From NCBI GenBank assembly GCA_035943235.1, contig DASZCH010000129.1, forward strand, positions 13,229 to 77,228: a DNA stretch of 64,000 nucleotides, written 5' to 3'. This document shows positions 3,460 to 64,000 of the stretch, piece after piece (the first letter of the stretch is position 1; each line of letters opens with the position of its first letter). The position numbers were made by a program, and so were the translations under genes. This DNA is from Candidatus Acidiferrales bacterium (GTDB lineage Bacteria; Acidobacteriota; Terriglobia; Acidiferrales; UBA7541). Below the pieces are notes generated by a model that was not told the DNA's origin, ran no database searches, and saw nothing but the letters and a program-made list of their open reading frames with translations.

Positions 3460-6156
3460 ATGGCGATCTGGCGCAGAGTCGAATGGTTGTCCTGGTTTCC
3501 TTGGTATCGTCGCCGGACACGCCATGCTGAACTGGAACGCGAAATGCGCGATCACCTTGAATTGGAAGCTGAAGAACAGCAAGCCGCCGGTCTGTCGGCG
3601 CAAGAGGCGTCTTACGCTGCGCACCGAGCCTTGGGCAACACGCTGAAGATCCAAGAAGATGTGCGTGCGGCATGGGGCTTCCTGTGGCTCGAAACACTCG
3701 CTCAGGACGTCCGCTACGCACTGCGCATGCTGCGCAAGTCTCCGGGATTCACGGTGGTTGCCGTCCTCACTCTCGCCCTCGGCATCGGCGCAAGCACTGC
3801 CGTTTTCAGCTTAGTGGATGCTGTCCTGCTAAAGCCCTTGCCTTTTCCGCATGCCGAAAAAATCGTCTTTCCATGGCGTTTGCCGAAGCGTGGCGTGAAT
3901 CTTGGATTTGCCGTCTATCCCTGGGGCCGGCTCGATTTCTTGTTCTTCTCGCAGCAATCCAGAACCTTTGAAGCTCTGGGCGCTTTCCTGAGTGATTCGT
4001 TCAATCTGACGGACTCAGGCGAGCCGGAGCGGCTGGATGGCCTTCGCGTTTCAGCGGGGTTCTTTCCTTCTCTCGGCGTTTCGCCCGCTTTGGGACGCAC
4101 CTTCACCGATCAGGAAGATCGCCTCGGCAACGAACACGAAGTGATTCTTGGCAGTGCATTGTGGCGGCAAAGATTCGCTTCCAATCCCGAGATTTTGGGT
4201 CACGCCATTGATCTAAACGGCGTTCCCTATATCGTAATCGGCGTGATGCCACCAGGATTTGTTTTTCCCAATTCCCATGAGATGCCCAATGTCTTTACAT
4301 TCGCGCCTCAGACTCAACTGTGGGTTCCTCTCGCCCTCGACCGCCGAAGCACGGCCATTCCGTATGAGTCCGACGAGCTTGCCATCGTCGGCCGCATCAA
4401 ACCTGGCGTCACGATTGCTCAGGCGCAAGCGGACATGGACATAATGGGGAAGCGCCTGGAGAGCGGGAGACGCAATGGAGAAGGATGGTTTAACTCCGCG
4501 GTCACACCGCTCACGCGCCAAGTTGCAGGAAACACTCGCCAACCTCTTTTGCTAATTCTCGCGGCCGTGGGAGTCGTTCTGCTGATTGCGTGTTCCAACG
4601 TTGCGAGCCTTCTTCTCACTCGTTCGCTCAATCGTCAACGCGAATTCACCGTGCGCTCGGCTCTCGGTGCCGGCGCTGCACGTTTGATGCGGCAATTGAT
4701 GACCGAAAGCATCGTCTTGGCGAGCCTGGGCGGAGTAGTTGGAATTTGTTTGGCTGAAGTCATAGTCTACTTCGTGAAGGTTTTCGGTCCTTCTCGTATT
4801 CCGCGTCTTAGCGAAGCCAGTCTCGACATTCGCGTTTTGCTCTTCGCCTTTAGCGTCACTCTCTTCACCGGAGTTCTTTTCGGTTTGGCGCCGGCGCTCA
4901 GTACCACGCGTGAAAATCTTGTGGAATCGCTCAAGGAGGGTGGCCAGCGCGCCGGGTCCAATCTTTCAACTCAGAAAACTCGCAACTCATTTCTTGTTTC
5001 GCAGATTGCTCTCGCGCTCGTTTTGGTTGTCGCCGCCGGGCTTCTAACGCGCACGCTTTATCATCTGCTCGCCGTGAATCCCGGCTTTCGTGGGGAGCAC
5101 TCTCTTACGTTTGAACTTTCCTTGCCGGCCGCAAAGTATTCCGGCCAATCCCACATCGTATCTGTTTATCAAGAGACCCTCCGCAAATTGCGTGCCATTC
5201 CGGGCGTACAGGCGGCCGGAGTTACAGAATTGATTCCGCTCGATGGCGCAACCGAATCCACAGCAATTCGTTTCTCCAACGCCAGACAAGTTACTCCCTC
5301 GAGCCCAGCCTTCGCGAATTACACGATGGTTTCGCCGGGCTACTTTGCCGCTGTGGGAACGCGGATTCTGCACGGCCGCTCATTTCTCGAATCGGATTCA
5401 GCGGATTCTCTTCCTGTCGCAATCATCAGCAGCGCAATGGCTGAAAAGTATTGGCCCGGTCAAGATCCGGTGGGGAAACAAGTCGCGCCCGCGGGTGCGG
5501 CATTTCCGCTTGCCACCATTGTGGGTGTCGTCGCCGACGTCAAGCGTCTTTCGATCCGCGAGTCTCCGCCGCCGGAAATGTATGTGCCGTACACACAAAA
5601 AGTGTGGCCGTCGCTGCTCACGATGGACGTCGTGTTGCGCACGGCACAGGATCCCGGGTCCATCACCGCCAGCGCGCGCAAAGCGATTCACTCGATCGAT
5701 CCGGATTTGCCGCTTTCGAACGTGAGGACGCTTGCGGCCATCGTCTCGAACTCGATGAGTGAGCCGCTGTTCGCGGCGCTGCTCCTCGGAGCATTCGGAG
5801 TGGTAGCGCTGCTGCTCGCCACCATTGGAATGTACGGCGTTATCTCCTACAGTGTGACGCAACGTACGCAAGAAATTGGCCTGCGGATGGCGCTTGGCGC
5901 GCAGCCGCGCAACGTGCTGGAACTCGTCCTTGGCCAGGGTACTCGCCTCGCTATCGTCGGAATTACCGTCGGTCTTGCCGCCGCCTTCGCGACAACGCGT
6001 TTCATGAACGGGTTCCTGTACGGTGTCGGAGCGCTCGACCCGCTCACCTTCCTTGTCGTTTCATTGCTGCTCATGGGCACCGTCCTCCTGGCCTGCTACA
6101 TTCCCGCGCGCCGCGCGATGCGCGTGGATCCAATGGTAGCCCTCCGGTATGAATAA
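3460..6156 (+). CDS. ADOP-family duplicated FtsX/MacB-like ABC transporter permease
   Basis: 898 aa. N-terminus ELEREMRDHLELEAEE...DVRYALRMLRKSPGFTVVAVLTLALGIGA. Two FtsX-type membrane modules. C-terminus YIPARRAMRVDPMVALRYE. Starts 2 nt after the PadR gene. Confidence 0.9.
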   Translation: MAIWRRVEWLSWFPWYRRRTRHAELEREMRDHLELEAEEQQAAGLSAQEASYAAHRALGNTLKIQEDVRAAWGFLWLETLAQDVRYALRMLRKSPGFTVVAVLTLALGIGASTAVFSLVDAVLLKPLPFPHAEKIVFPWRLPKRGVNLGFAVYPWGRLDFLFFSQQSRTFEALGAFLSDSFNLTDSGEPERLDGLRVSAGFFPSLGVSPALGRTFTDQEDRLGNEHEVILGSALWRQRFASNPEILGHAIDLNGVPYIVIGVMPPGFVFPNSHEMPNVFTFAPQTQLWVPLALDRRSTAIPYESDELAIVGRIKPGVTIAQAQADMDIMGKRLESGRRNGEGWFNSAVTPLTRQVAGNTRQPLLLILAAVGVVLLIACSNVASLLLTRSLNRQREFTVRSALGAGAARLMRQLMTESIVLASLGGVVGICLAEVIVYFVKVFGPSRIPRLSEASLDIRVLLFAFSVTLFTGVLFGLAPALSTTRENLVESLKEGGQRAGSNLSTQKTRNSFLVSQIALALVLVVAAGLLTRTLYHLLAVNPGFRGEHSLTFELSLPAAKYSGQSHIVSVYQETLRKLRAIPGVQAAGVTELIPLDGATESTAIRFSNARQVTPSSPAFANYTMVSPGYFAAVGTRILHGRSFLESDSADSLPVAIISSAMAEKYWPGQDPVGKQVAPAGAAFPLATIVGVVADVKRLSIRESPPPEMYVPYTQKVWPSLLTMDVVLRTAQDPGSITASARKAIHSIDPDLPLSNVRTLAAIVSNSMSEPLFAALLLGAFGVVALLLATIGMYGVISYSVTQRTQEIGLRMALGAQPRNVLELVLGQGTRLAIVGITVGLAAAFATTRFMNGFLYGVGALDPLTFLVVSLLLMGTVLLACYIPARRAMRVDPMVALRYE

Positions 6157-6440: not shown

Positions 6441-7973
6441 TCAATTTGTGAAACTCAGATGAAATTGTTTAGCGAACGTTCTGAGTTTGCTGGCGCTTTG
6501 TTCGAATGAAGCTAGCGCGACATAGCCATCGGGCCGCACAACATACAGAGCACCGCACTTCAGTCCAGCATCTTTTGTATTATCGCCGAAGGCAAAGGCA
6601 TGGAGAGGCAGGTGAAGTTCGCGACAGGCCGTTTCCAGATCTTTGTCCACCTCGCCGTACACATGTGCTTGCCAATCGAGCGAACGCAAAGGCTCGAAAT
6701 TATCTTCTGCGTGAGATCCCGTCCAGGGAAGACGGTCTCCGCCGTGGACATGGCCGGCAGCTCCCTGGCTAAGCGGACTGTCTGGATAGTGAATGCGCAT
6801 TTGCGAAATCGTGCGAAAGATGGCGTGGCGGCCTAAACTGAAGCGCGTGACGACGCCGAACACCAGAGGCGCGACAATCTTTCTCGTGAATTCGCCTATC
6901 ACTCCTTCGCCAACCAAGCCCGTAAATGCGCGATCGGTCGTGGATACAAGGGACCGTGCAAAGGCGATGCGCTCGGGCTCGTAAGTATTCAGAAGGGACG
7001 GGTCGGCGCGGTTCTGCAGGACGTGCGCTATTTTCCAACCGAGATTGACGGCGTCTCCGATTCCGGTGTTCATGCCCTGACCGCCCGCGGGGCTGTGGAT
7101 GTGGCCTGCATCGCCAACCAGGAACGCACGCCCCACGCGGAATTTGTCGGCGACGCGATGATGGACGCGATAGGTCGAGAACCAATTTACCTGCGCCACC
7201 TTGATATCGAGTAGCGGCTCGACATGGGCGCGCAGGTCCTCAAAGCCAAGGTCCTCGCGGTGCGACAGTTCGGATGGGACGAGGCCGATCAAGCGCTGCA
7301 TTCCACTCGATCGCACCGGAAACATCAACGTGAGAATGTGTTCGCCGAGATTGATATAAAGATCCCGGGAGAACTCGCCCTCGATCTTCACGTCCGCGAC
7401 GTAAAACAGTTGCTCGTAGGTTCCACCGGGAAAACCGACCCGGAGAGTTTCCCGCACACAGCTTCGCGCGCCATCGCAGCCGCAGATATACGCGCTTTCC
7501 GCGTGCTCAACCCGATCTGTATTGTGCTCGATGGTAGCGCGAACACCGTTTTCGCTTTCGGCAAAGCTGGTTAGCTTCGCGCCCCATTCGATTTCACAAC
7601 CAGCATCCTTAAGCTTCCCGATCAAGTACCGTTCATGATCGTCCTGCGGATAAGCGAGGGCGAAGGGATAGGGACTAAGGCCAGCGCCCATGTCCTTGAA
7701 ACTGATGGAGAGAACTTCTCGACTACCACCGGAACTACCCTCCCGTATGTGGGCCGTTTCGGCGATGACGCCTTGGTCGACGACTTCCGCGGCAAGGCCG
7801 TATTGGCCGTAGAATTCGAGTGTGCGCGCCTGAACGACCATTGCACGCGATTGCTCTCCCGGGCCGCTGGCATCAGAAATGAGACGACATGGCACGTTGC
7901 GCCGGATCAGAGCCAGCGCCAAATTTAGTCCGCTCGGGCCAGCGCCAACGATGAGAACGGGAGCCTGTGGCAT
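6441..7973 (-). CDS. FAD-dependent aromatic-ring monooxygenase (PheA/TfdB-like)
   Basis: Motifs VLIVGAGPSGLNLA, CDGARSCVR and GDAGHIHSPAGGQGMNTGIGDAVNLGWK. Start placed at MPQAPV (7973); the ORF-track N-terminal extension looks spurious. Confidence 0.85.
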   Translation of the reverse strand: MPQAPVLIVGAGPSGLNLALALIRRNVPCRLISDASGPGEQSRAMVVQARTLEFYGQYGLAAEVVDQGVIAETAHIREGSSGGSREVLSISFKDMGAGLSPYPFALAYPQDDHERYLIGKLKDAGCEIEWGAKLTSFAESENGVRATIEHNTDRVEHAESAYICGCDGARSCVRETLRVGFPGGTYEQLFYVADVKIEGEFSRDLYINLGEHILTLMFPVRSSGMQRLIGLVPSELSHREDLGFEDLRAHVEPLLDIKVAQVNWFSTYRVHHRVADKFRVGRAFLVGDAGHIHSPAGGQGMNTGIGDAVNLGWKIAHVLQNRADPSLLNTYEPERIAFARSLVSTTDRAFTGLVGEGVIGEFTRKIVAPLVFGVVTRFSLGRHAIFRTISQMRIHYPDSPLSQGAAGHVHGGDRLPWTGSHAEDNFEPLRSLDWQAHVYGEVDKDLETACRELHLPLHAFAFGDNTKDAGLKCGALYVVRPDGYVALASFEQSASKLRTFAKQFHLSFTN

Positions 7974-8492
7974 GGTCTCAACCAACATACGGCAGAGACA
8001 AACAACCTGTCCATAAATTAGGATCTCGGGCACTCGCTCGCCAGATCGCCTACCTTGGGCGCACCGAACCCGACTCCAACAGCTCCTTCTCTTAGTTCTA
8101 ACTGCTAAGGGTTCCAATAAATCGGGGAATCTGGGTTTCGCTCAAAGCCATGATAACTTCGGGGCAGCACAACATGGGAAGCTCCAGTTGCCACAGTGGC
8201 ACTGACTCCGTGTTACCGGAACGAACCGAACCGTCTACCGAACGATGGAAAGGACACAAGAATCGGCGAAACCGCAAATAGAACCCCAGCGCTTATGACT
8301 TCCTTTGAAATGCGGTTTCGTCGTTACGAGCGCGCAAAGTCGAGAAGGGGCTTTCGACGTGTCGCGCACTTCCTTCATCAGGTCACCTTCAATCAACACC
8401 TCACGTCCCTTAACTAGACGCCTGCTGCCGTGTCCCCCACTTGGCCTTCACGGAAAATAATCCTCGGCATCGTTTGTACTTCTCTGTCCGCA

Positions 8493-9962
8493 CTACGGAG
8501 CTCTGTTGTCGTAAGTGGCGGGCAGATTCTTCGGGGCGAAAAAAATTCGCAACGAGTGCTCCGATGCCGGTTCGGTTACCAAGCTGACCATGATCAGGAG
8601 CAAAATACTAACGATTAATCCCGCTTCTACCGGATCAAGTCCCCAGAAATAAGGATGTGCCAGCCGATTCCACGTCAAACATGCGGTGGCTCCGCCAAAC
8701 ATCGAAGCTAGAGCCCCCTCGCGCGTGGCTCGCCTCCAGTTCAGGCCAATGACCACGGGGGCAAAGAAAAAGCTAACTAAAAGCTGCGATGCGAAGATCA
8801 CCACAAAGTTGACAAGGTCCATGCGTCGTAATGCGATGATGACTGGAATAATTCCAAAACACAGGACTGAGAGTCGACCCGCGAGAACTTTCTCTTTTTC
8901 AGTAGCCTGCGGACGGAAAAACTTCACGTAAATATCGTGCGACAGCGCTGAAGCGATTGTAAGCAAAATCGCTCCGCCGGTTCGAGTGAATGTCACCACG
9001 ACAGTAAGTAGTGCCAACATTCCGATCCAGACAGGCAAAATGCTCATCCCCAGCACAGGTGTAGCCAAGTCAGGATCGGGCAGAAAAGGAACGAGCTTCC
9101 GCATCGAAAGCCCAAAGATTAGGACTCCCACAGCAATGATGGCTTGAAATACAAACGAATAGCCAATGGCCAGCCGCGTTACGCGCTTGCTGGAAAGAGA
9201 GTAAATCGCCGAAATCTCGTACGGGGCGCACGCCAGCCCAAGACCGACGGCCAGCGATATGGCGAACAAGTGGCGCGCCGTGAACCAGGATCCTGTTAGG
9301 CGAGAGTCGATTGAATGCAGCGCATATCCCAAAGCATGGAGACCCCCGACCGAGCGCAGTAGAAATGGGACTGCCGTAACGTAAGCACCTATCAGCAAAA
9401 CTGCTTTCAGCATGCCGACATATGCATTGCTGTACATCCCCCCGAGGGTCGTGTAAACGGCGACTGTGGCCGCGACGAGAATGACCGCTTGTGAATATGA
9501 CATACGTGTTATCATACTTATCAGTAGACCGCCTGCTTGATATTGCGCAGAAAGCATAACTGCATAAGCCACCATGATAAGAATCGCGGACACGCCTCGG
9601 AGCGCGAGGCTCTCGAAACGCGCCGCGAAGTAATCTGGCAAAGTGATACCGGCCATCTCACGCATCTTGGGCGCCACGAGAATTGCGGCGATTAACCAGC
9701 CGAACCAAACACTGGTCCACGTCCAAAGAAAACTGATGCCGGAAAAATAATGGAAGCCTACGACTCCGATCGTGGTGCCGGCGCTGATTTGATTGGCCAT
9801 TAAAGTAGCCCCACCGACAATGGGCCCCAAACTCCTTCCGGCAACAAGAAAGCCCGCTTCATCCTTAGTCTTCCGGTAGGTCCACAATCCAATGGCGCAG
9901 ACAACCACCACATATAACCCCGTGATTGCCAGGAACACACGGAGGTGCCAGGAAGGGGTCAC
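8493..9962 (-). CDS. Sodium:solute symporter (SSS family)
   Basis: 489 aa, multi-pass membrane protein. Sequence FLVAGRSLGPIVGGATLMANQISAGTTIGVVG. Confidence 0.85.
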   Translation of the reverse strand: MTPSWHLRVFLAITGLYVVVVCAIGLWTYRKTKDEAGFLVAGRSLGPIVGGATLMANQISAGTTIGVVGFHYFSGISFLWTWTSVWFGWLIAAILVAPKMREMAGITLPDYFAARFESLALRGVSAILIMVAYAVMLSAQYQAGGLLISMITRMSYSQAVILVAATVAVYTTLGGMYSNAYVGMLKAVLLIGAYVTAVPFLLRSVGGLHALGYALHSIDSRLTGSWFTARHLFAISLAVGLGLACAPYEISAIYSLSSKRVTRLAIGYSFVFQAIIAVGVLIFGLSMRKLVPFLPDPDLATPVLGMSILPVWIGMLALLTVVVTFTRTGGAILLTIASALSHDIYVKFFRPQATEKEKVLAGRLSVLCFGIIPVIIALRRMDLVNFVVIFASQLLVSFFFAPVVIGLNWRRATREGALASMFGGATACLTWNRLAHPYFWGLDPVEAGLIVSILLLIMVSLVTEPASEHSLRIFFAPKNLPATYDNRAP

Positions 9963-10871: not shown

Positions 10872-12191
10872 TTATAGCCGTTGTGACCTGGCAACTGCCT
10901 CTAGACCTGTCCGCATCGCTGCCAACAGAAATTCTGCTTCTGCATCCCCGTGTGCGGCGCTAAGAGCGTGGTGTTGAATGTAATTCGGGGCACAAAGGAC
11001 CCTGTTTTCGGTAAGAGCTCGCACAAACACCTGGTAGGCTTTTGCATCCGACTTCAATATTTCACGGTAGTTCGTCGGCGCAGTTTCGGTGAAATACCAA
11101 TGAAAATGCCCTCCGCCACCGACCATTTTCACGGCTACTCCAAGTGTTTTCGCGATGCCTTCAAACTCCTGACGCATTTGGAGCAGCCGCTCATTTAATC
11201 GACGCACTACGGTTCCATCGGAAATCGTTTCCAATACTGCCGAACACGCGGCCAGCGAAGCTTGATGAGAATTAAAAGTACCAACGAATGCATATCGATT
11301 ACGGGTCGGCCCGTCCGGCGCCATCAGGCTCGCCCGGCCCGCGACGGCAGCAATAATGAAACCATTCCCAAGAGCCTTGCCGAATATTGATAAATCCGGC
11401 GTAACCCCGTAGAACTGTTGGGCGCTGCCTTGGACCAGCCGAAAGCCCGTGAGCAGTTCATCAAAAATGAGCACGATGCCCAGCTCGTGAGTGAGGCGTC
11501 GCAAACTCTGCAGGTAATCTTTCCGAGCTGGAATCCAACCGACGTCAATCATGATTGGCTCCACAACGACCGCAGCAAGACGGTGGGCGTTGCTGCGAAG
11601 GAGAACCTCGGTATTCTCAATATCGTTGAACGGCACGACCAGCGTCGAAGCGACTGCAGCGGGATGCAGTCCGGTCGAACCTGCGACTGACGAGGGACAC
11701 GCGGGGTCGCCACCACTCTCGGCATCGGGAAAGGAGCTTACGAAAACAAAATCGGACCAACCGTGGTAGCTTCCCTCCGGTTTCGCAATGTCGTTCTTGC
11801 CGGTATACGCGCGCGCCATCGATATCGCGTGCATGCTGGCTTCCGTACCCGTGTTCGTAAATCTCACTTGCTCTGCCGTGGATATATGTGTGAGGAATTG
11901 CTCGGCAGCGACAATGCTGAGTTCGCCTTCCAGTCCCGCTCCCAGTCCCGTTTCGATTTGCCGCTGCACCCGCCGCGATACGTCGGGATGTGCATGCCCC
12001 AGCATCACGGCGCCATTACCCATGATGCAATCCAAATACTGATTGCCATCGGCGTCGACAACCCAAGCTCCGTGGGCGCGCGCAAAGTAATGGGGATGAG
12101 GAACACGAACTCGAGAGTCTGAATGAGTTCCTCTTGGTACGATACCGACTCCGCGCTTATAGAGCTTCTCGGATTGATCCACAATTTCCAT
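10872..12191 (-). CDS. Class-III PLP aminotransferase (glutamate-1-semialdehyde aminomutase-like)
   Basis: Motifs TNTGTEA, GSYHGW, FDELLTGFR and SIFGKALGNG (PLP lysine). ATG at 12191 is preceded by AAGGA. Confidence 0.85.
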   Translation of the reverse strand: MEIVDQSEKLYKRGVGIVPRGTHSDSRVRVPHPHYFARAHGAWVVDADGNQYLDCIMGNGAVMLGHAHPDVSRRVQRQIETGLGAGLEGELSIVAAEQFLTHISTAEQVRFTNTGTEASMHAISMARAYTGKNDIAKPEGSYHGWSDFVFVSSFPDAESGGDPACPSSVAGSTGLHPAAVASTLVVPFNDIENTEVLLRSNAHRLAAVVVEPIMIDVGWIPARKDYLQSLRRLTHELGIVLIFDELLTGFRLVQGSAQQFYGVTPDLSIFGKALGNGFIIAAVAGRASLMAPDGPTRNRYAFVGTFNSHQASLAACSAVLETISDGTVVRRLNERLLQMRQEFEGIAKTLGVAVKMVGGGGHFHWYFTETAPTNYREILKSDAKAYQVFVRALTENRVLCAPNYIQHHALSAAHGDAEAEFLLAAMRTGLEAVARSQRL

Positions 12192-12199
12192 GTTGTTCC

Positions 12200-13174
12200 T
12201 TAGGAGTCCCACGATGTTGCTGTGGAAAGATCTCCAACCATAAATGCGTAATCACCGGGATTGACGCGAGACGTGTAATTCCTTGAGAGGACCAGAATGT
12301 TGTTTTCAAAGGGGGTGTAGAGCGTCTCGAGAGTCTCGAATGAGTATGGACTGATAATCTCTGCGAGTTTGTGTTGGCCCAAAAGGATTTCTCCGGGAAT
12401 CAGAGGCCTTTGCGGGACACAGAGCCCTCCCGCACGCGGTCGAATGACCCGGAGTTTGCGCATCAATAATTGCCCAGCAAGCTTTTCGACTTCACCAGAA
12501 AGTGCTCCAATGTAACGGAGCATGTTAATGACACCGCGAACGCTGCGGGAAACATGATCTCTCTGATCCACGTATCCGCCACCTAATTCGACAACAGTTG
12601 TAGGAATCTTTCTCCCCGTAGTAAGACCGGCCGTCGTGCCCGGATAGATCGGGCTCGGCGCATAGAGAAGCTTAGAAAGAAACGCTCGAGAAAGGCCTTC
12701 ATCGTTCAGTAGGTAACAGTAATCCACAAGGGGAAATGTACCCCCGGCATGAAGATCAATGTAATAGTCCAACTTTCCTAGGAACTGTTCGTCGATGGCT
12801 GCAGCCAGTTGTTCGCTGAACCAGCCGTCCCGAACACCAGGGAAAAGGCGATTCAAGTCGAGCATGTCGAGAGGCGTATTTCGTGACAGGCTTTCAAAGG
12901 CCAACGGGTTGGCCACGGGCATTAGCCATAGGCTTCCTGAAAGTGTTGTTGGATCGAGCGAGTTCCACAACTCCTGAACAACTTGTACTCCAACGATCTC
13001 ATCTCCGTGAATTGTTGCAGAAATGCCGATTTTGGGCCCCTCGCGATTGCCTTTCACGACCAAAACAGGCACGGACAGGTTAAAGCCACTTGCAAGTGTT
13101 GCGACCTCAATCGCATGCTGCTCCCGGAATTCTCCATCTTTGGCAATAGGTCTGGTCCTTGCATTCTGGTTCAT
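12200..13174 (-). CDS. Succinylglutamate desuccinylase/aspartoacylase (AstE/AspA) family deacylase
   Basis: Sequence GISATIHGDEIVGVQVVQELW, then ..DLHAGG. Start placed at MNQNART so it does not overlap the IclR gene. Confidence 0.8.
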   Translation of the reverse strand: MNQNARTRPIAKDGEFREQHAIEVATLASGFNLSVPVLVVKGNREGPKIGISATIHGDEIVGVQVVQELWNSLDPTTLSGSLWLMPVANPLAFESLSRNTPLDMLDLNRLFPGVRDGWFSEQLAAAIDEQFLGKLDYYIDLHAGGTFPLVDYCYLLNDEGLSRAFLSKLLYAPSPIYPGTTAGLTTGRKIPTTVVELGGGYVDQRDHVSRSVRGVINMLRYIGALSGEVEKLAGQLLMRKLRVIRPRAGGLCVPQRPLIPGEILLGQHKLAEIISPYSFETLETLYTPFENNILVLSRNYTSRVNPGDYAFMVGDLSTATSWDS

Positions 13175-26580: not shown

Positions 26581-26850
26581 GGCCACACCTATACGTTTTC
26601 GGTCGATGGTTCAGAGCTTTTCGCCGTCACTGAAGATCAAACGGTTTATCTTCTGAACCTGAGCGAATCGAAGGCGAATTGAGAGTAAGGCCCAAACGAT
26701 TCGCACCCATGGTCACTGCCACATCGAGATTCATGGCCCACTTCTCTTCGGGGGATCGACCTGCGCGTGATTTCCTGTCCATGGGGCATCCTGTTGGGAG
26801 GCCCTGATTCTACCTAACTGCGGTGTCCAGTTTTAGAGGGGTGCACTACA
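26581..26850 (+). repeat. Left copy of a ~260-270 bp direct repeat (partner at 60861..61128)
   Basis: 26593-26850 aligns without gaps to 60871-61128, with 8 mismatches in 258 nt counted by eye. It contains the last ~29 codons of a beta-propeller-like ORF (..FSVDGSELFAVTEDQTVYLLNLSESKAN*) plus 168 nt downstream, and ends sharply at ..GGGGTGCACTACA. Confidence 0.9.
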
Positions 26851-26923
26851 CGAGTGAACCGCGAACTCCTAGTTAAAATTCCGATTTCGGAAGGATGTTG
26901 TGAACCCATACCTCCGATTTCGA

Positions 26924-40547: not shown

Positions 40548-41876
40548 TTAGTACGCGAATGGATTATCCGGGAAGGTCAAAACGGGGCGATGCCCTCCGG
40601 CGAGCGCATCGCTGAAATGCAGGAGCCACATACCGATCCCGGAAGCTCCTTGCATATACCCGGTTTGCGCAACCGCAATATCCGGGCGGACCCGGGTTTC
40701 CACCTGCACCCAGCGGTACCGTTTGCCGTCCTCCTCAGCCAGTGCGAGGAGTTGTTCGCCGCCCTTCTTGGCCGCCCTGAACCATCTGCGATCATGAGTG
40801 ACCAGAAAAGCATCGTAGAGAAACTCCGATTCGGCCGCAATCCCGCAGCACATGCTAACGTTATGCCAAACACCTGGAGTGACCGCCTTTGCCGGGCCTC
40901 CGTTGGCTACGACGGCTTCCGCACATTTCTCCACGAGATCCCGCCATTGCCGATCACCAGTCGCCTGGTAGAGTCTATAGAATAGCCGTGCTGTTCCGGC
41001 CGGTCCGTGACACCAGCCCAAGTAAAAAAGATCTTGGTGCTCGCTATCGTGGTAGATCATGCAGTAGCGGTCATTCAGGTCGGCGATGGACAGTAAGTAC
41101 TTCGCGCCAGCAAGCGCCGCATCGAGGAACTTCTTTTGGCCTGTGGCCTGGTACAGCGTAGCTAAGAAATAAGAAACACCGGCCGTGCCGTGCGAGAAAT
41201 TGGGCATCTCCCGAGGATAGCTCGGATCCATCATCCACATCAGGCCGTCTTGTTTTCGCTGAGCGGTCGCGATCAAGAAATCACCGGCGCGCGCCGCGAG
41301 CTGTTTTGCTCCCGGAGCCTGGAGGTGGTCGGCGGCCCAAAGCAGGAAGAGGCCGGTGCCGCTCGAACCCGCGATGATGTCAGTGACATCGTTCCATTTG
41401 GCCCCTGTGGGTGTCATTTGCGCGCGTTTTTCCAGCCAGCGCACGCAAAGGAGAGCGCCGTCGCGATAACGGGTGTCATGCGTAATCAGGTACGCTTCCC
41501 CGAGCGTGAAGCCAGAACCGGCGAGGCCTTCATACAATCCGGTCCCATCTTTCTCGGAAATCGATACAAGAAGAGCGTCAGCTCCCTTCTCGCCCTTTTC
41601 CAGGAAATCCAGGTCCTGCGTGTAGCGATAGGCTTCAAGAAAAAACAGAATTGGACCTGGAGTGCCAGCATACAGCGTAGTGTTAACACTCTCCGGATTT
41701 CGAGGGTCCGCAGGCCAGACGATCCCATTCCCCCTGTTCGAGCCGTTTTCCTCGATCCAGTGCGCCGCCCCAATGGCTGCTCGCTGGTACGCGTCTCGGG
41801 TTCGTCCTCGCGCCCCCCAGGAAATGGAAAGCGCGGCGCAAGCCGCCACTGCTGCAATTCTCAAATGCTTGCTCAT
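40548..41876 (-). CDS. Exported LanC-like (lanthionine synthetase C-like fold) protein, paralog 1
   Basis: N-terminal signal-like segment MSKHLRIAAVAACAALSISWG. LanC-type G-rich repeat motifs GLAGSG, GSSGTG, NFSHGTAG, GWCHGPAG, MCCGIAAE and GASGIG. Confidence 0.7.
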   Translation of the reverse strand: MSKHLRIAAVAACAALSISWGARGRTRDAYQRAAIGAAHWIEENGSNRGNGIVWPADPRNPESVNTTLYAGTPGPILFFLEAYRYTQDLDFLEKGEKGADALLVSISEKDGTGLYEGLAGSGFTLGEAYLITHDTRYRDGALLCVRWLEKRAQMTPTGAKWNDVTDIIAGSSGTGLFLLWAADHLQAPGAKQLAARAGDFLIATAQRKQDGLMWMMDPSYPREMPNFSHGTAGVSYFLATLYQATGQKKFLDAALAGAKYLLSIADLNDRYCMIYHDSEHQDLFYLGWCHGPAGTARLFYRLYQATGDRQWRDLVEKCAEAVVANGGPAKAVTPGVWHNVSMCCGIAAESEFLYDAFLVTHDRRWFRAAKKGGEQLLALAEEDGKRYRWVQVETRVRPDIAVAQTGYMQGASGIGMWLLHFSDALAGGHRPVLTFPDNPFAY

Positions 41877-41928: not shown

Positions 41929-43326
41929 TCAGTAAGGGAACGGGTTATCAGGAAATCGGATGACAGGCCGGTGTTGTCCGGCGAGCGCGGCGTTGAAATG
42001 CAGCAGCCACATCCCTATCCCCGAGGCCCCCTGCATATAGGACGTTTGCGCAATGGCATAGTCTGGCCGAACGAAAGTTTCGACCTGCACCCAGCGGTAT
42101 TCTCCATCACGCACATCGGCTCTCCGCAGTAAGTCTTCACTGCCTTCTTTGGCCGCCTGGAGCCATTTGCGATCATGCGCAACCAGATAAACATTGTAAA
42201 AAAACTCCGCCTCGCCGGCCGTGCCGTCGCAGATGCTGACGTTGCGCCATACGCCCGGATTCGGGATTTGCTTGGGCTGGCCTTGGCGCCAAACCGTGAG
42301 CGTCCTGGCCGATCCCGATGGTATGGTCGTAAAAGCCTTCTCTGGCCCACCAAAAATCCGTGTGGCTGCCGCGCACTTTTCCACTAATTCCAGCCACTTC
42401 GGCTGTTTTGTAATTTGATAAAGGCGGTAGAAGAGTGCGGCGGTTCCCGCCGGGCCGTGCGCCCAATCGAGATAAAAGAGATGCGTGTTGTGATTGTCAT
42501 GATAGACGAGGAAATACCGATCTGAGGAATTGGCGATCGCGATCAGGTGCCTGGCGCCTTTGCGCGCGGCGTCCAGAAACTCCTTGCGACCGGTGACCTG
42601 ATAAAGCGTAGCCAGAAAATACGCCACTCCAGCCGTGCCGTGACAGAAATTCGGCATCTCGAATGGATAGCTGTTGTCCATCATCCACTTGAGCCCGCCC
42701 CCGGGTTGCGGCTGGCCAAGCCGAATCAGATGTTCACCAACCCGCATGGCCAAGGCACGGGCCTCCACCGCCTGGAGGTGGTCGGCCGCCCAAAGTAGGA
42801 ATAGGCCTGTCCCGCTCGCTCCGCTAATGATATCCGTGACCTCATTCCACTTGCTTCCATCCGCAGTATTCGTCGCCTTCGCCTCAATCCAGTGCAGGCA
42901 CTGCAGCGCACCTTCCCGATACTTGGCATCGCGAGTGATCAAATAGGCCTCGCCCAAGGTGAAACCAGAACCTGCGAGACCAGTGTACAGACCTGTGTCG
43001 TCATTCTTGGAAATGGAGGCGAGGAGCGCATCGGCTCCCTTGCGCGCCTCTTCGAGGTCCGCGCGATTTCCCGTGTAACGGTAGGCCTCCAGGAAAAAGA
43101 GAATCGGGCCGGGAGTGCCGGCGAAGAGAGTTGTATTCATACTCTTGGGGTCTTCGGGATTGGCGGCCCAGACGATTCCCGAATTCTTGGCTGTGCCGTT
43201 CATGCGGAGCCACTGCGCCGCTCCGAGAGCCGCTTTTTCATAAGGGGAGTCCGCAGCTTGCGCGGGAAGAGTGGAAACCATCAGAACGATTAGGAAGACT
43301 GCGACGCCTTGGAGCAGATGTTTCAT
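41929..43326 (-). CDS. Exported LanC-like protein, paralog 2 (degenerate metal-ligand motifs)
   Basis: Signal peptide MKHLLQGVAVFLIVLMVSTLPAQA. Roughly two-thirds identical to paralog 1 by eye. Motifs NFCHGTAG, DWAHGPAG (Cys lost) and ICDGTAGE. Extra ~24-aa insertion TTIPSGSARTLTVWRQGQPKQIPN. Confidence 0.7.
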   Translation of the reverse strand: MKHLLQGVAVFLIVLMVSTLPAQAADSPYEKAALGAAQWLRMNGTAKNSGIVWAANPEDPKSMNTTLFAGTPGPILFFLEAYRYTGNRADLEEARKGADALLASISKNDDTGLYTGLAGSGFTLGEAYLITRDAKYREGALQCLHWIEAKATNTADGSKWNEVTDIISGASGTGLFLLWAADHLQAVEARALAMRVGEHLIRLGQPQPGGGLKWMMDNSYPFEMPNFCHGTAGVAYFLATLYQVTGRKEFLDAARKGARHLIAIANSSDRYFLVYHDNHNTHLFYLDWAHGPAGTAALFYRLYQITKQPKWLELVEKCAAATRIFGGPEKAFTTIPSGSARTLTVWRQGQPKQIPNPGVWRNVSICDGTAGEAEFFYNVYLVAHDRKWLQAAKEGSEDLLRRADVRDGEYRWVQVETFVRPDYAIAQTSYMQGASGIGMWLLHFNAALAGQHRPVIRFPDNPFPY

Positions 43327-60537: not shown

Positions 60538-60960
60538 ATGTGGGTTGTTCGCTCAATCTTCTACTTCGCGAATGTGGATGAGGCCGCCGAGTCCATCCCG
60601 GTTTTTGCGGAGAGGGATAAGCTTCGCTGGGGTCCGGGTAGGGACAGCCATGAGATCGCGACCATTGGGTTGATTGGACATTGCCAAGCAGGGCCTTCAA
60701 GTGCATGGTGCAGGAAAATCACAGGCCGCCTCTTTGGCACCGGGCAGGCCGCATCGGACGCAGGCAAAGAGGTCGCTCTTCGGAATGGCATCGGCACTGT
60801 GCAGATTTATAGTTTGGCTACCGCCAGGCAGATTGAAACCCTCACATTCGGTAAGCCGTTGGCCTATTACACGTTTTCGGCCGATGGTTCAGAGCTTTTC
60901 GCCGTCACTGAAGATCAAACGGTTTATCTTCTGAACCTGAGCGAATCGAAGGCGAATTGA
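60538..60960 (+). pseudogene. Probable 3' remnant of a WD40/beta-propeller-like gene
   Basis: Only the last ~55 aa look protein-like (..GIGTVQIYSLATARQIETLTFGKPLAYYTFSADGSELFAVTEDQTVYLLNLSESKAN*). The 3' end is part of the 260-270 bp repeat. Confidence 0.35.
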
Positions 60961-61128
60961 AAGTAAGGCCCAAACGACTCGCACCCTTGGTCACTGCCAA
61001 ATCGAGATTCATGGCCCACTTCTCTTCGGGGGATCGACCTGCGCGTGATTTCCTGTCCATGGGGCCTCCTGTTGGGCGGCCCTGATTCTACCTAACTGCG
61101 GTGTCCAGTTTTAGAGGGGTGCAATACA
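60861..61128 (+). repeat. Right copy of the ~260-270 bp direct repeat (partner at 26581..26850)
   Basis: See 26581..26850. Ends at ..GGGGTGCAATACA. Confidence 0.9.
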
Positions 61129-61465
61129 TGTGTTTGCATGGCGTGCCCTGTAGTACCCGCTGGCAACCTGTTTCATCTGAGGACGTATGAGAGGTTTGCG
61201 GGTTAATTCCCGAAGTAGCGACAGTGCTGACCGGAAGGCTCGAAGGGATACGAGGCACCAACAGCGTTTAACTTATTCTCAAGTTGGGAGGAGCGAAATT
61301 CCCTGAGAAAAGCTTAGAAAATTGCAACTGCGGCTACCACACAATTCTTCACATCGCGGGTACGAGGATTGCTACACTCCGCGGATGCCCAGAAGAATCG
61401 TAGCGATAGCATTACCCGTGAAGGCGCACACATAAGTCTTCGCGCGGGGCGTTCTTTGATACGTT

Positions 61466-61822
61466 TTATGTTTCCCTCTTGAATGTGACGGTGACACTAG
61501 CTTGGACCCCCGCTTCAGCGATGAACGCGAGTTTACCCTTAGCCGTGAAACCGAGAGAAATTTCAACACTATCGAAACGCACTCCCTTGGGAGCTCTCGT
61601 AAAAGCATTTTCTAGGATCTGTTCGACCTGACCTGACACCTTTTCAAAATCTTTCTTCACATCGCCTACGGACCTGCCGAAAAGTGTCCCCGGTGTATTG
61701 GAACCAAACAGATGCAATTCCACCTCACCGGCCTTCGCGACTGGCTTCTCACCCTGAAAAACAATAATGTCACGATCTTCGATGTTGGCTTTAGGCATCA
61801 TGGATTTCGTTTTACGTTTCAT
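61466..61822 (-). CDS. Trypco1-like (trypsin co-occurring domain 1 / CU044_2847-like) small protein
   Basis: GGAGG RBS 6 nt upstream of ATG 61822. 118 aa. The C-terminal FDSVEISLGFTAKGKLAFIAEAGVQASVTVTFKR matches the family pattern (..EV.VEFG..L....G..I.......V.V.W). Located 29 nt downstream of a trypsin-like protease gene. Confidence 0.65.
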   Translation of the reverse strand: MKRKTKSMMPKANIEDRDIIVFQGEKPVAKAGEVELHLFGSNTPGTLFGRSVGDVKKDFEKVSGQVEQILENAFTRAPKGVRFDSVEISLGFTAKGKLAFIAEAGVQASVTVTFKRET

Positions 61823-61851
61823 CGACCGCCTCCATTTCTTAGGGAAATCTC

Positions 61852-62838
61852 TCAGAGCAGCAGCTCTAGAGCTAATGTTTCGGCAGCTTGCCCCAAGTGC
61901 TGGCAAAAGCCTTCCTGTTGGTCGTTTGCGAGGCTTGTAACACTCCCCATGTAAATGCCCACACCCTCGGCATTAGCGTTGAGAACGAGGCTACCAGAAT
62001 CACCGGGCTTCCCGGGATTCGCTAGAAAGACGCGGAGTGGAATCGTGTAATGTAACGAGCCCCTGCTGGGAGTAACTTCGATGACTTTCGTTTGAAAAAT
62101 TCCCGACTCACGGCCATAAACCTGAACATCAGTCCATTGGGCAATGTGAGTCTGCGCGACAAAATGATGCAAATGAGACGGCAATAGAGTGCGAGGCACT
62201 TGTATCAGAGCTGCATCAATTCCCTCCGGGGCGAGATCTAGGAGTTTACCAAGGCCTTTCGTCAGCGGTACGGGATTGCCTAGAATTCGCTGACCGACCA
62301 CGTGCTTGGCTGTCACCAGCCCTACCTTCTTTTGGAGGCTTGGTTTCAAGCTCCTTGCCCAGCAAGCAGCTGTGCCATTCGCGGGATGGATTTGCGGCAA
62401 TTGGTGAAATTCCCAGCGAGATGGCCTGATAAACGCGGGGAACTGAAGGTTCCCGATCTTCACGCTAAGATCCGTTTGAGGCTCGACAAGAAGAATTTCA
62501 TCAAGTTCCGGGACGCCAGGAGCGGTGTATAGCAAAGCAGCGAAAGCATCCTTTTCATATTCGGGATCCGCGAACCCGTAGGTCACCATCTCTAGACCGG
62601 CTACGCTGCGACCAATTCTTTGCTCTTCGAACGCTTTCTGAAGCGCAATGGTCCATAGGATCGCGCGCTGCTCATCCTCTGACTGCTCTTCAATCTGTTC
62701 TCGCAGACGCGCGTAAAGATCACGGTCGCCGCCAAGCTCCTGCGGAGCTGGCAACCTCGATGGCAGTAGATCCAAGCCTTGGCTTTTTTCAAAGTTCATA
62801 ACAAGCCTCACTACGGGTCGGGTTAGGTTGGACTCCAC
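61852..62838 (-). CDS. Trypsin-like serine protease with an uncharacterised ~150-aa N-terminal region
   Basis: Catalytic triad motifs in the canonical order: GLVTAKHVVG (His), GIDAALIQV (Asp), GKPGDSGSLVL (Ser). Start could also be 62799 (MNFEKSQ). Confidence 0.8.
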   Translation of the reverse strand: MESNLTRPVVRLVMNFEKSQGLDLLPSRLPAPQELGGDRDLYARLREQIEEQSEDEQRAILWTIALQKAFEEQRIGRSVAGLEMVTYGFADPEYEKDAFAALLYTAPGVPELDEILLVEPQTDLSVKIGNLQFPAFIRPSRWEFHQLPQIHPANGTAACWARSLKPSLQKKVGLVTAKHVVGQRILGNPVPLTKGLGKLLDLAPEGIDAALIQVPRTLLPSHLHHFVAQTHIAQWTDVQVYGRESGIFQTKVIEVTPSRGSLHYTIPLRVFLANPGKPGDSGSLVLNANAEGVGIYMGSVTSLANDQQEGFCQHLGQAAETLALELLL

Positions 62839-62904
62839 GCACCTGTTACGAAGGCAACGCCAAACACTCGCTCACGGCAAACGAAATGTATGAACATGTA
62901 CAAA

Positions 62905-62925
62905 GGGCCGCTTTGCGAGCGGCCC
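62905..62925 (-). terminator. Rho-independent terminator after the PilZ gene
   Basis: On the minus strand: GGGCCGCT-CGCAA-AGCGGCCC (8-bp GC stem) followed by TTTG. It lies 21 nt after the PilZ stop. Confidence 0.5.
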
Positions 62926-62945
62926 CCCAGCCCTTTAAGCGGCAT

Positions 62946-63918: not shown

Positions 63919-64000
63919 CTACTCGTATCTCAGGGCGACCATGGGATCGACACGCATCGCGCGGCGGGCGGGAACGTAGCAGGCGGCGAGGGCCACGAGA
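63919..64000 (-). CDS. 3' end of a second ADOP/FtsX-family permease (partial, runs off the window)
   Basis: The reverse translation ..LVALAACYVPARRAMRVDPMVALRYE* is nearly identical to the C-terminus of 3460..6156. Confidence 0.8.
   Translation of the reverse strand, partial: LVALAACYVPARRAMRVDPMVALRYE

Follow-up and report, generated by a model that had tools for sequence, protein, structure and literature searches.

A stand-alone NAL1-like serine protease and a tail-less Pepco/Trypco1 protein: a candidate self-contained suicide module in an Acidiferrales genome

Can a latent toxin and the protease that would activate it work as a unit of two genes, with no separate sensor beside them? The question is raised by a locus in a stretch of 64,000 nucleotides (nt) from a Candidatus Acidiferrales bacterium (GenBank assembly GCA_035943235.1, contig DASZCH010000129.1, positions 13,229 to 77,228 of the forward strand; hereafter the window, with coordinates counted from its first nucleotide). 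There, a trypsin-like serine protease gene is followed on the minus strand by a small gene whose product had been predicted, from the sequence alone, to be of Trypco1 type. Death effectors that are licensed by a protease increasingly look like a common theme of bacterial immunity and, to our knowledge, all characterised examples depend on a large dedicated sensor, e.g., a STAND ATPase. The two-gene operon described here is genuine and consists of the serine protease gene and then a Pepco/Trypco1 gene, with no separate sensor gene. On balance, and with moderate confidence, the pair is read by analogy as a self-contained suicide module in which the protease would license a membrane-permeabilising Pepco. 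Pepco-protease pairs as such are already known, and their mechanism has been demonstrated in one branch; new here are the sensor-less minimal architecture, an unannotated protease family that is NAL1-like by fold, and a tail-less effector of Trypco1 type.

The family of the small protein is clear from profile searches. The protein exceeds the curated cut-offs of Pfam Pepco (PF24393; 39.6 bits, cut-off 27) and Trypco1 (PF19493; 27.5 bits, cut-off 24.6) as well as the cut-off of NCBIfam CU044_2847 (25 bits, cut-off 23), which bears out the Trypco1-type identity proposed in the original prediction on the strength of a beta-rich C-terminal segment. The Pfam scan gives no match to Trypco2, and an identical protein at NCBI already carries the name CU044_2847 family protein. 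A profile search recovers 259 relatives. The AlphaFold2 monomer model (predicted local distance difference test score, pLDDT, 67) lays out a Lys-rich, disordered N-terminus (residues 1-18), two short strands, a helix (52-73) and a long hairpin (81-93/105-116). The helix is amphipathic, with a helical hydrophobic moment of 0.46-0.63, and on this monomer model of pLDDT 67 the strands 81-93 and 105-116 alternate hydrophobic and polar residues. As modelled, the small protein combines an amphipathic helix with amphipathic strands that could form a barrel. The tip of the hairpin bears a near-invariant G-K-L-A-F-I-A-E-A-G motif, in which all 105 aligned sequences have F100 and A102, and at least 90% of them keep L98, I101, A104 and G105; in the monomer model the pLDDT of this tip is below 50. 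The window protein stops two residues past its last strand, and 99 of the 120 relatives that reach the profile end have a tail of 0-4 amino acids (aa) past the last profile position. A search of PDB sequences with the Pepco profile gives chance-level matches only, and Foldseek of the monomer model, itself of modest confidence, against the PDB gives noise (best E >1); an oligomer is probably needed for a meaningful structure comparison. At a separate locus (L047, 5313-6327), a 108-aa Pepco gene has no full-length NAL1-like protease upstream, and just one open reading frame (ORF) of ~170 aa, on the opposite strand, has a weak match to the GDSG region; the locus is perhaps degraded or arranged differently.

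Upstream of the small gene, on the minus strand, lies the 328-aa ORF that had been singled out for its TAKHV, DAALI and GDSGS motifs. Its catalytic triad is intact: in the 328-aa numbering, which is used throughout, His179 lies within LVTAKHVVG (codon 62302-62304), Asp208 within GIDAALIQ (62215-62217) and Ser281 (Ser268 in the 315-aa numbering) within KPGDSGSLV (61996-61998). The triad does not vary in an alignment of 27 homologues and is invariant or at least 90% conserved in an alignment of 96 distant representatives. Pfam Peptidase_S7 matches the Ser region (24 bits, cut-off 20), beyond which profile searches of PDB sequences give weak matches to Spl and SGPB. The AlphaFold2 model (pLDDT 87.7; predicted template modelling score, pTM, 0.87) folds residues 151-328 into a double-barrel protease domain and residues 14-150 into helices (21-72) followed by a four-strand sheet with one helix (82-144). 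With the His-Asp-Ser order on a double beta-barrel, the modelled enzyme is predicted to belong to the chymotrypsin fold (clan PA). The ATG at 62799 is more likely than the GTG at 62838 to be the true start, since a putative ribosome-binding site (RBS), GAGG, lies 6 nt upstream of it and homologues start there. Among these is a 100%-identical database protein of 315 aa (P0001, from a 'Candidatus Acidoferrales' metagenome-assembled genome, MAG) that begins MNFEKSQ, and family members without the N-terminal extension also begin at this position. Neither protein has a signal-peptide-like or hydrophobic segment as judged by eye, and the enzyme is predicted from its sequence to be a cytoplasmic serine protease. 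The Pfam scan finds no NTPase domain in it.

Both genes are genuinely coding and under strong purifying selection, since the ratio of nonsynonymous to synonymous divergence (dN/dS) is ~0.04 for each against a relative at ~85% protein identity, a comparison in which dS is saturated. Spurious or chance ORFs are ruled out by this ratio together with the conservation of both genes. The protease family comprises 501 clusters at 50% identity at E up to 0.001, and 371 at E up to 1e-10. Among the best 150 of the 501 representatives, the majority have 300-330 aa and match the profile end to end. Ten longer members were scanned: one has an extra Trypsin_2 domain, one has pentapeptide repeats, and the other eight have no extra recognisable domain above threshold. 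On three short metagenome contigs (L039, L040, L042) the match is limited to protease residues 111-269, at 70-78% identity; possibly, the genes there are fragments or chimeras.

The original prediction placed a region of ~150 aa without a recognisable domain in front of the triad. This region indeed has no family match in Pfam, NCBIfam or PADLOC, but from the ATG it measures only ~137 aa, and it is NAL1-like by fold, since the model aligns to NAL1 along its whole length. Rice NAL1 is the top PDB match of the protease model in Foldseek (8PMG, 8PN2, 7Y77; E = 2e-9), with a template modelling (TM) score of 0.52-0.53 over 381-403 columns for the 328-aa query, which is covered entirely. The next matches, to alpha-lytic protease, SGPB, NAPase, Spl and DegS, span ~190 columns only, in the C-terminal half. 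Identity to NAL1 in the structural alignment is ~15%, and NAL1 is not recovered from PDB sequences by protease profiles of 27 or 96 sequences at E up to 10. Judged from the model, the protease appears to be NAL1-like by fold, N-terminal region included, and the likeness is purely structural. Conserved residues associated with the N-terminal region are W62, G88, F99, P152 and G155 (27-sequence alignment). Rice NAL1 is built from an N-terminal domain, a non-canonical ATP-binding domain (four strands and a curved helix) and a serine protease domain; its activity requires a hexameric cage form, and the eukaryotic protein is a substrate-degrading cage protease and developmental regulator (PMC12012508). 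Viral structures in BFVD that match the protease model nearly full length are A0A7S9XDX3 (Virus NIOZ-UU157, 449 aa; TM 0.50) and A0A0N9MU75 (318 aa; TM 0.48).

For the comparison between genomes, loci were gathered from one genome per species, from metagenomes and by exact-protein look-ups, and were scanned with profiles of both proteins. This gave 27 protease loci, non-redundant at 90% identity, of which 25 are informative (one contig end and one fragment were set aside). The Pepco gene lies directly 3′ of the protease gene in 21 of the 25, and the spacing among relatives ranges from a 4-nt overlap to ~70 nt. In the window, the 118-aa ORF lies 29 nt downstream with its own GGAGG RBS, exactly as first read, a spacing consistent with one shared transcript. 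The hosts of the pair include several Acidobacteriota (Silvibacterium, Alloacidobacterium, Pseudacidobacterium and Acidobacteriaceae MAGs) and Syntrophorhabdus. The pairwise divergences of protease and Pepco correlate closely (Mantel r = 0.92; 0 of 2000 permutations as high). Clustering of the neighbouring ORFs in the 27 non-redundant neighbourhoods reveals no third gene and no NTPase shared beyond close relatives, and flanking genes differ widely between loci. Because the flanks vary and no NTPase recurs, the pair can be regarded as a minimal module without an NTPase, as had been proposed from the window.

The comparative data show that the pair moves between genomic contexts. Three loci (L010, L019 and L045, the last of Pseudacidobacterium ailaaui type) have it among housekeeping genes, and at L015 Fic/AbiEi and Trypsin_2-TPR genes are found near it. 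At L009 (1-9981), a defence-type island, an 85%-identical homologue lies beside SIR2_2 and DUF87/HerA genes. A 623-aa PLD-family gene stops 20 nt before the protease gene at this locus, which also holds a 121-aa ORF followed by a 617-aa FGE-sulfatase-domain protein, possibly a second pair of the protease-effector type. At L014 (the same place as L006; Acidobacteriota MAG chromosome OY969112.1), the pair is located between inverted repeats (7517-8578 and 11933-12994), each unit comprising a 263-aa ORF and a DDE_3 transposase fragment, and the whole looks like a composite transposon that carries the protease-Pepco module.

Four of the 25 loci lack Pepco (L016, L030, L033 and L005). At L016 (3516-9014), L030 (2762-7954) and L033 (2673-7942), a conserved CHAT-metallophosphoesterase-CHAT-protease operon ends with the gene of the NAL1-like protease, which is translationally coupled; ahead of it are a small ORF, a metallophosphoesterase and a CHAT protease. 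In this sub-branch, the two proteases might form a cascade, with an effector other than Pepco. At L005 (4994-9199, an Alphaproteobacteria MAG), a caspase-family (Peptidase_C14) gene and a weakly matching alpha/beta-hydrolase gene precede the protease, and an overlapping 93-aa ORF without a family match takes the place of Pepco after it. The pairings of these four loci are among the published protease-effector contexts (Kaur et al., 2020, PMC7159879; Evans et al., 2025, doi 10.1101/2025.11.14.688446). Since the Pepco-less loci have other published effector pairings, the protease family can be seen as supplying one half of a protease-effector module, and this half is exchangeable.

The names Trypco1 and Trypco2 date from 2020, when one or the other of them, but not both, was described next to trypsin-like peptidases of NTPase-centred conflict systems (Kaur et al., 2020, eLife e52696, PMC7159879). 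No experimental function was known to the original prediction, a statement that has to be withdrawn: Evans et al. (2025, preprint, doi 10.1101/2025.11.14.688446) supply one for the Pepco group, on a Trypco2-type protein, and describe Pepco, which they equate with Trypco1 and Trypco2, as a latent pore-forming toxin. SsPepco of Streptomyces subrutilus forms beta-barrels of 9-10 subunits that resist sodium dodecyl sulfate. The trypsin-like domain of the adjacent SsAvs4 activates it by cutting after Ile97, with loss of a 20-aa tail and release of a 2-kDa fragment. Toxicity of SsPepco/SsAvs4 requires the catalytic Ser and Pepco, a construct that ends exactly at Ile97 is lethal to Escherichia coli, the amphipathic N-terminal helix is required, and the Pepco-protease pair is exchangeable for a nuclease effector (all doi 10.1101/2025.11.14.688446).

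By analogy with SsPepco, we infer that the small protein would pre-assemble as an inert oligomeric beta-barrel, that the protease beside it would cleave it at a single, specific position, and that the cut Pepco may then become a membrane-permeabilising toxin. The cell would die or halt its growth, for instance under phage infection. Because no NTPase or sensor gene accompanies the pair, the trigger would have to act either on the protease (its N-terminal domain or oligomeric state) or on the Pepco oligomer itself. Two candidate sites can be named for the cut. One is Ile101 (codon 61520-61522) at the exposed hairpin tip. Of 92 motif matches, 87 have Ile here, and 16-17 residues come after it; in the window protein these residues are the 17-aa stretch AEAGVQASVTVTFKRET, about the size of the 2-kDa fragment of SsPepco. 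The other is the Lys-rich N-terminal extension, which SsPepco lacks.

Several results weigh against this transfer of mechanism and against a role in defence. SsPepco, with its sequence taken from the supplementary table of Evans et al. (2025), matches Pfam Trypco2 (PF19631; 65.6 bits) and neither Pepco nor Trypco1, and hhalign of the window Pepco family alignment against it is not significant (probability 0.15%). The mechanism is therefore carried across families that are grouped in the literature, and not by homology found here. The known SsPepco cleavage site could not be placed on the window protein by this comparison. The SsPepco cut site lies in an unstructured, charged, Pro-rich extension ~12 residues beyond the last strand, and the window family has no cleavable C-terminal tail of this type. 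With the tail absent, the SsPepco activation geometry cannot apply as such, and an activating cut in the window protein, if any, would lie elsewhere. For the proteases, hhalign against the SsAvs4 protease domain reveals generic similarity around His and Asp only, so that specificity for Ile at P1 is not inferable from SsAvs4. PADLOC-DB 2.0 has no match for either protein at E up to 10, a scan of viral contigs found no sequence relatives, and PHROGs gives one weak match, to the protease. Furthermore, in several genomes, including the window and the P. ailaaui-type locus, the pair lies among housekeeping genes and not in a defence island.

The roles of the two proteins could also be reversed, the protease being the effector that degrades cell or phage proteins and the small protein a regulator, adaptor or inhibitor that restrains it or recruits substrates. 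This would agree with Kaur et al. (2020, PMC7159879), who treated peptidases as N-terminal effector-type domains and Trypco1/2 as partners of unknown role, and with NAL1, which degrades substrates as a cage protease (PMC12012508); tight co-divergence suits a binding partner as well as a substrate. However, truncated SsPepco is lethal to E. coli on its own and the pair is swappable for a nuclease effector (doi 10.1101/2025.11.14.688446), the window Pepco has an amphipathic helix and hairpin of a membrane-active type in its model, and in relatives the position of Pepco is occupied by enzymes already proposed as protease-activated effectors. The reversed assignment is thus considered rather unlikely. 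It is a little harder still to believe that the pair is a housekeeping or stress proteolysis module, in which a NAL1-like cage protease and a dedicated small substrate or cofactor would serve regulated proteolysis, envelope stress or development. The metabolic and regulatory neighbours in the window and at L010, L019 and L045, the negative PADLOC search, the lack of relatives in the viral contigs and the developmental role of eukaryotic NAL1 (PMC12012508) all point in this direction. Yet the distribution is patchy, flanks are unlike between relatives, one copy lies between inverted insertion sequence (IS) copies and others beside SIR2-HerA, PLD, Fic/AbiE, CHAT or caspase genes, and the small-protein family is itself defined by its association with conflict systems.

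The N-terminal region might instead be a pro-domain acting as a folding chaperone, with the pair making a secreted protease or a bacteriocin-like product. The closest non-NAL1 structures of the protease domain are alpha-lytic protease, SGPB and NAPase, which are made with large N-terminal pro-regions. Against this, both proteins lack the segment expected of a secreted product (see above), no transporter is conserved beside the pair, and the modelled N-terminal region packs on the protease as one unit and aligns with NAL1 throughout, which leaves this reading highly improbable. A more far-reaching form of the licensing model, also judged unlikely, makes the NAL1-like protease both sensor and executioner: its N-terminal four-strand domain, the counterpart of the ATP-binding domain of NAL1, or a trimer-to-hexamer assembly would directly sense infection or stress, e.g., through a nucleotide, the enzyme would cut tail-less Pepco after Ile101, the two proteins would make up an autonomous suicide switch, and plant NAL1 would descend from this bacterial family. 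A cut at the hairpin tip would then be a licensing geometry other than the tail removal of Trypco2. Returning to the suicide module in its plain form, the features on which it is based are located in the window as follows.

Table 1. Coordinates of the protease-Pepco locus and of the adjacent hairpin in the window.
Feature	Position	Strand	Description or basis
Pepco/Trypco1-family gene	61466-61822	minus	118 aa; Pfam, NCBIfam, alignments, AlphaFold2 model
Near-invariant motif G96-K-L-A-F-I101-A-E-A-G105, hairpin tip	61508-61537	minus	105-sequence alignment
Intergenic spacer, 29 nt	61823-61851	minus	GGAGG at 61829-61833, 6 nt before the small-gene ATG
Protease gene	61852-62799	minus	315 aa from ATG; ORF extendable to GTG at 62838 (328 aa)
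Protease domain, two beta-barrels	61855-62388	minus	Triad, Peptidase_S7 match, fold matches
Protease N-terminal region, residues 14-150 (328-aa numbering)	62389-62799	minus	Candidate oligomerisation or sensing domain
Putative RBS of the protease gene, GAGG	62806-62809	minus	6 nt before ATG at 62799; read from the sequence
GC-rich hairpin	62902-62928	minus	11 pairs; between the PilZ stop codon (62946) and the protease gene

The locus in the window has ordinary chromosomal surroundings and is not a defence island. The gene upstream of the pair had been taken for PilZ, and its profile score agrees (23.3 bits, cut-off 22.5); upstream of it, at the window edge, a MacB/FtsX-type permease on the minus strand is seen via the overlapping contig L008. 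The hairpin between PilZ and the protease gene had been called a good terminator, which holds for its stem (-24.7 kcal/mol for the 66-nt segment that contains it) but not for its U-tail, which is short and weak, and a consensus terminator scan does not call it. Possibly, it ends the PilZ transcript and leaves the pair as its own unit. Downstream of the pair, ~600 nt without a convincing gene, including the right copy of a repeat, are followed by genes for flavin reductase, DUF4386, TetR, AHSA1 and an RND efflux operon. The argument from accessory or defence context is consequently weak for the window, since what surrounds the pair is of the ordinary chromosomal kind (PilZ, MacB/FtsX permease, TetR, flavin reductase, RND efflux) and the module lies outside the repeat interval; it does apply to some homologues, which are in defence islands or between IS copies.

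The repeat noted beside the module is real. It is a direct repeat of 266 nt, 96% identical, at 26590-26855 and 60868-61133, with copies 34.3 kb apart and sharp boundaries, and 333 nt separate the right copy from the small ORF. The 3′ end of a beta-propeller-like ORF fragment (60538-60960) falls inside the right copy, and the independent contig L008 appears to end there as well; each copy contains a minus-strand ORF of 51 aa. The candidates for its nature are an attachment-site duplication, a MITE-like element (miniature inverted-repeat transposable element) and a gene remnant. A mobile island bracketed by the repeat and carrying the module appears unlikely: the module is outside the bracketed interval, and the 64-kb window holds no tRNA gene. 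Elsewhere in the window, two tandem LanC-like paralogues (40548-41876 and 41929-43326) explain the direct repeats D2 and D3. There is also an inverted repeat of 72 nt, 81% complementary (6084-6155 and 63920-63991), whose left arm is the 3′ end of an 898-aa ORF (3460-6156) and whose right arm sits at the expected end of the MacB/FtsX-type permease, which runs off the window end (L008). As a guess, this repeat reflects a paralogous permease pair.

Because it consists of Pepco and a 315-aa protease alone, the pair lends itself as a minimal setting in which to ask what keeps such a module silent and what triggers it. If the suicide reading is true, the mechanism extends from the Trypco2 branch to the tail-less Trypco1 branch. 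The plant yield gene NAL1 gains a set of bacterial structural counterparts. The module is also present in an NCBI record named Pseudacidobacterium ailaaui, which may provide a cultured host.

Like rice NAL1, the window protease has, in its model, a helical N-terminal part, a domain of four strands plus a helix, and then a chymotrypsin-fold His-Asp-Ser domain. NAL1, by comparison, has a greater length (458-aa construct), regulates development in plants and has no Pepco partner. With the described Pepco-protease modules, the locus shares a small Pepco-group gene beside a trypsin-like protease gene, in a pair that is exchangeable. In those modules, sensors are fused or flanking (STAND/Avs4, VMAP-MoxR-vWA ternary systems, FGE, peptidoglycan-binding domains), whereas the window pair has a stand-alone protease of 315 aa with no conserved sensor gene nearby. 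Likewise, in contrast to NTPase-centred systems such as STAND/Avs and VMAP-MoxR-vWA, no NTPase domain is fused to the window protease, and no NTPase gene recurs in the 27 neighbourhoods. The window protein resembles SsPepco in its modelled amphipathic helix, its amphipathic strands and its partner protease. However, SsPepco is Trypco2-type, tailed and encoded upstream of its protease, whereas the window protein is Trypco1-type, tail-less and encoded downstream. The proposed logic of a latent toxin beside a protease that activates it through a site-specific cut would be shared with bacterial gasdermin-protease pairs and with EACC1-caspase, MBL or alpha/beta-hydrolase zymogens. Their effector folds are unrelated, and gasdermin and EACC1 must be cleaved before they oligomerise, whereas Pepco is reportedly assembled in advance.

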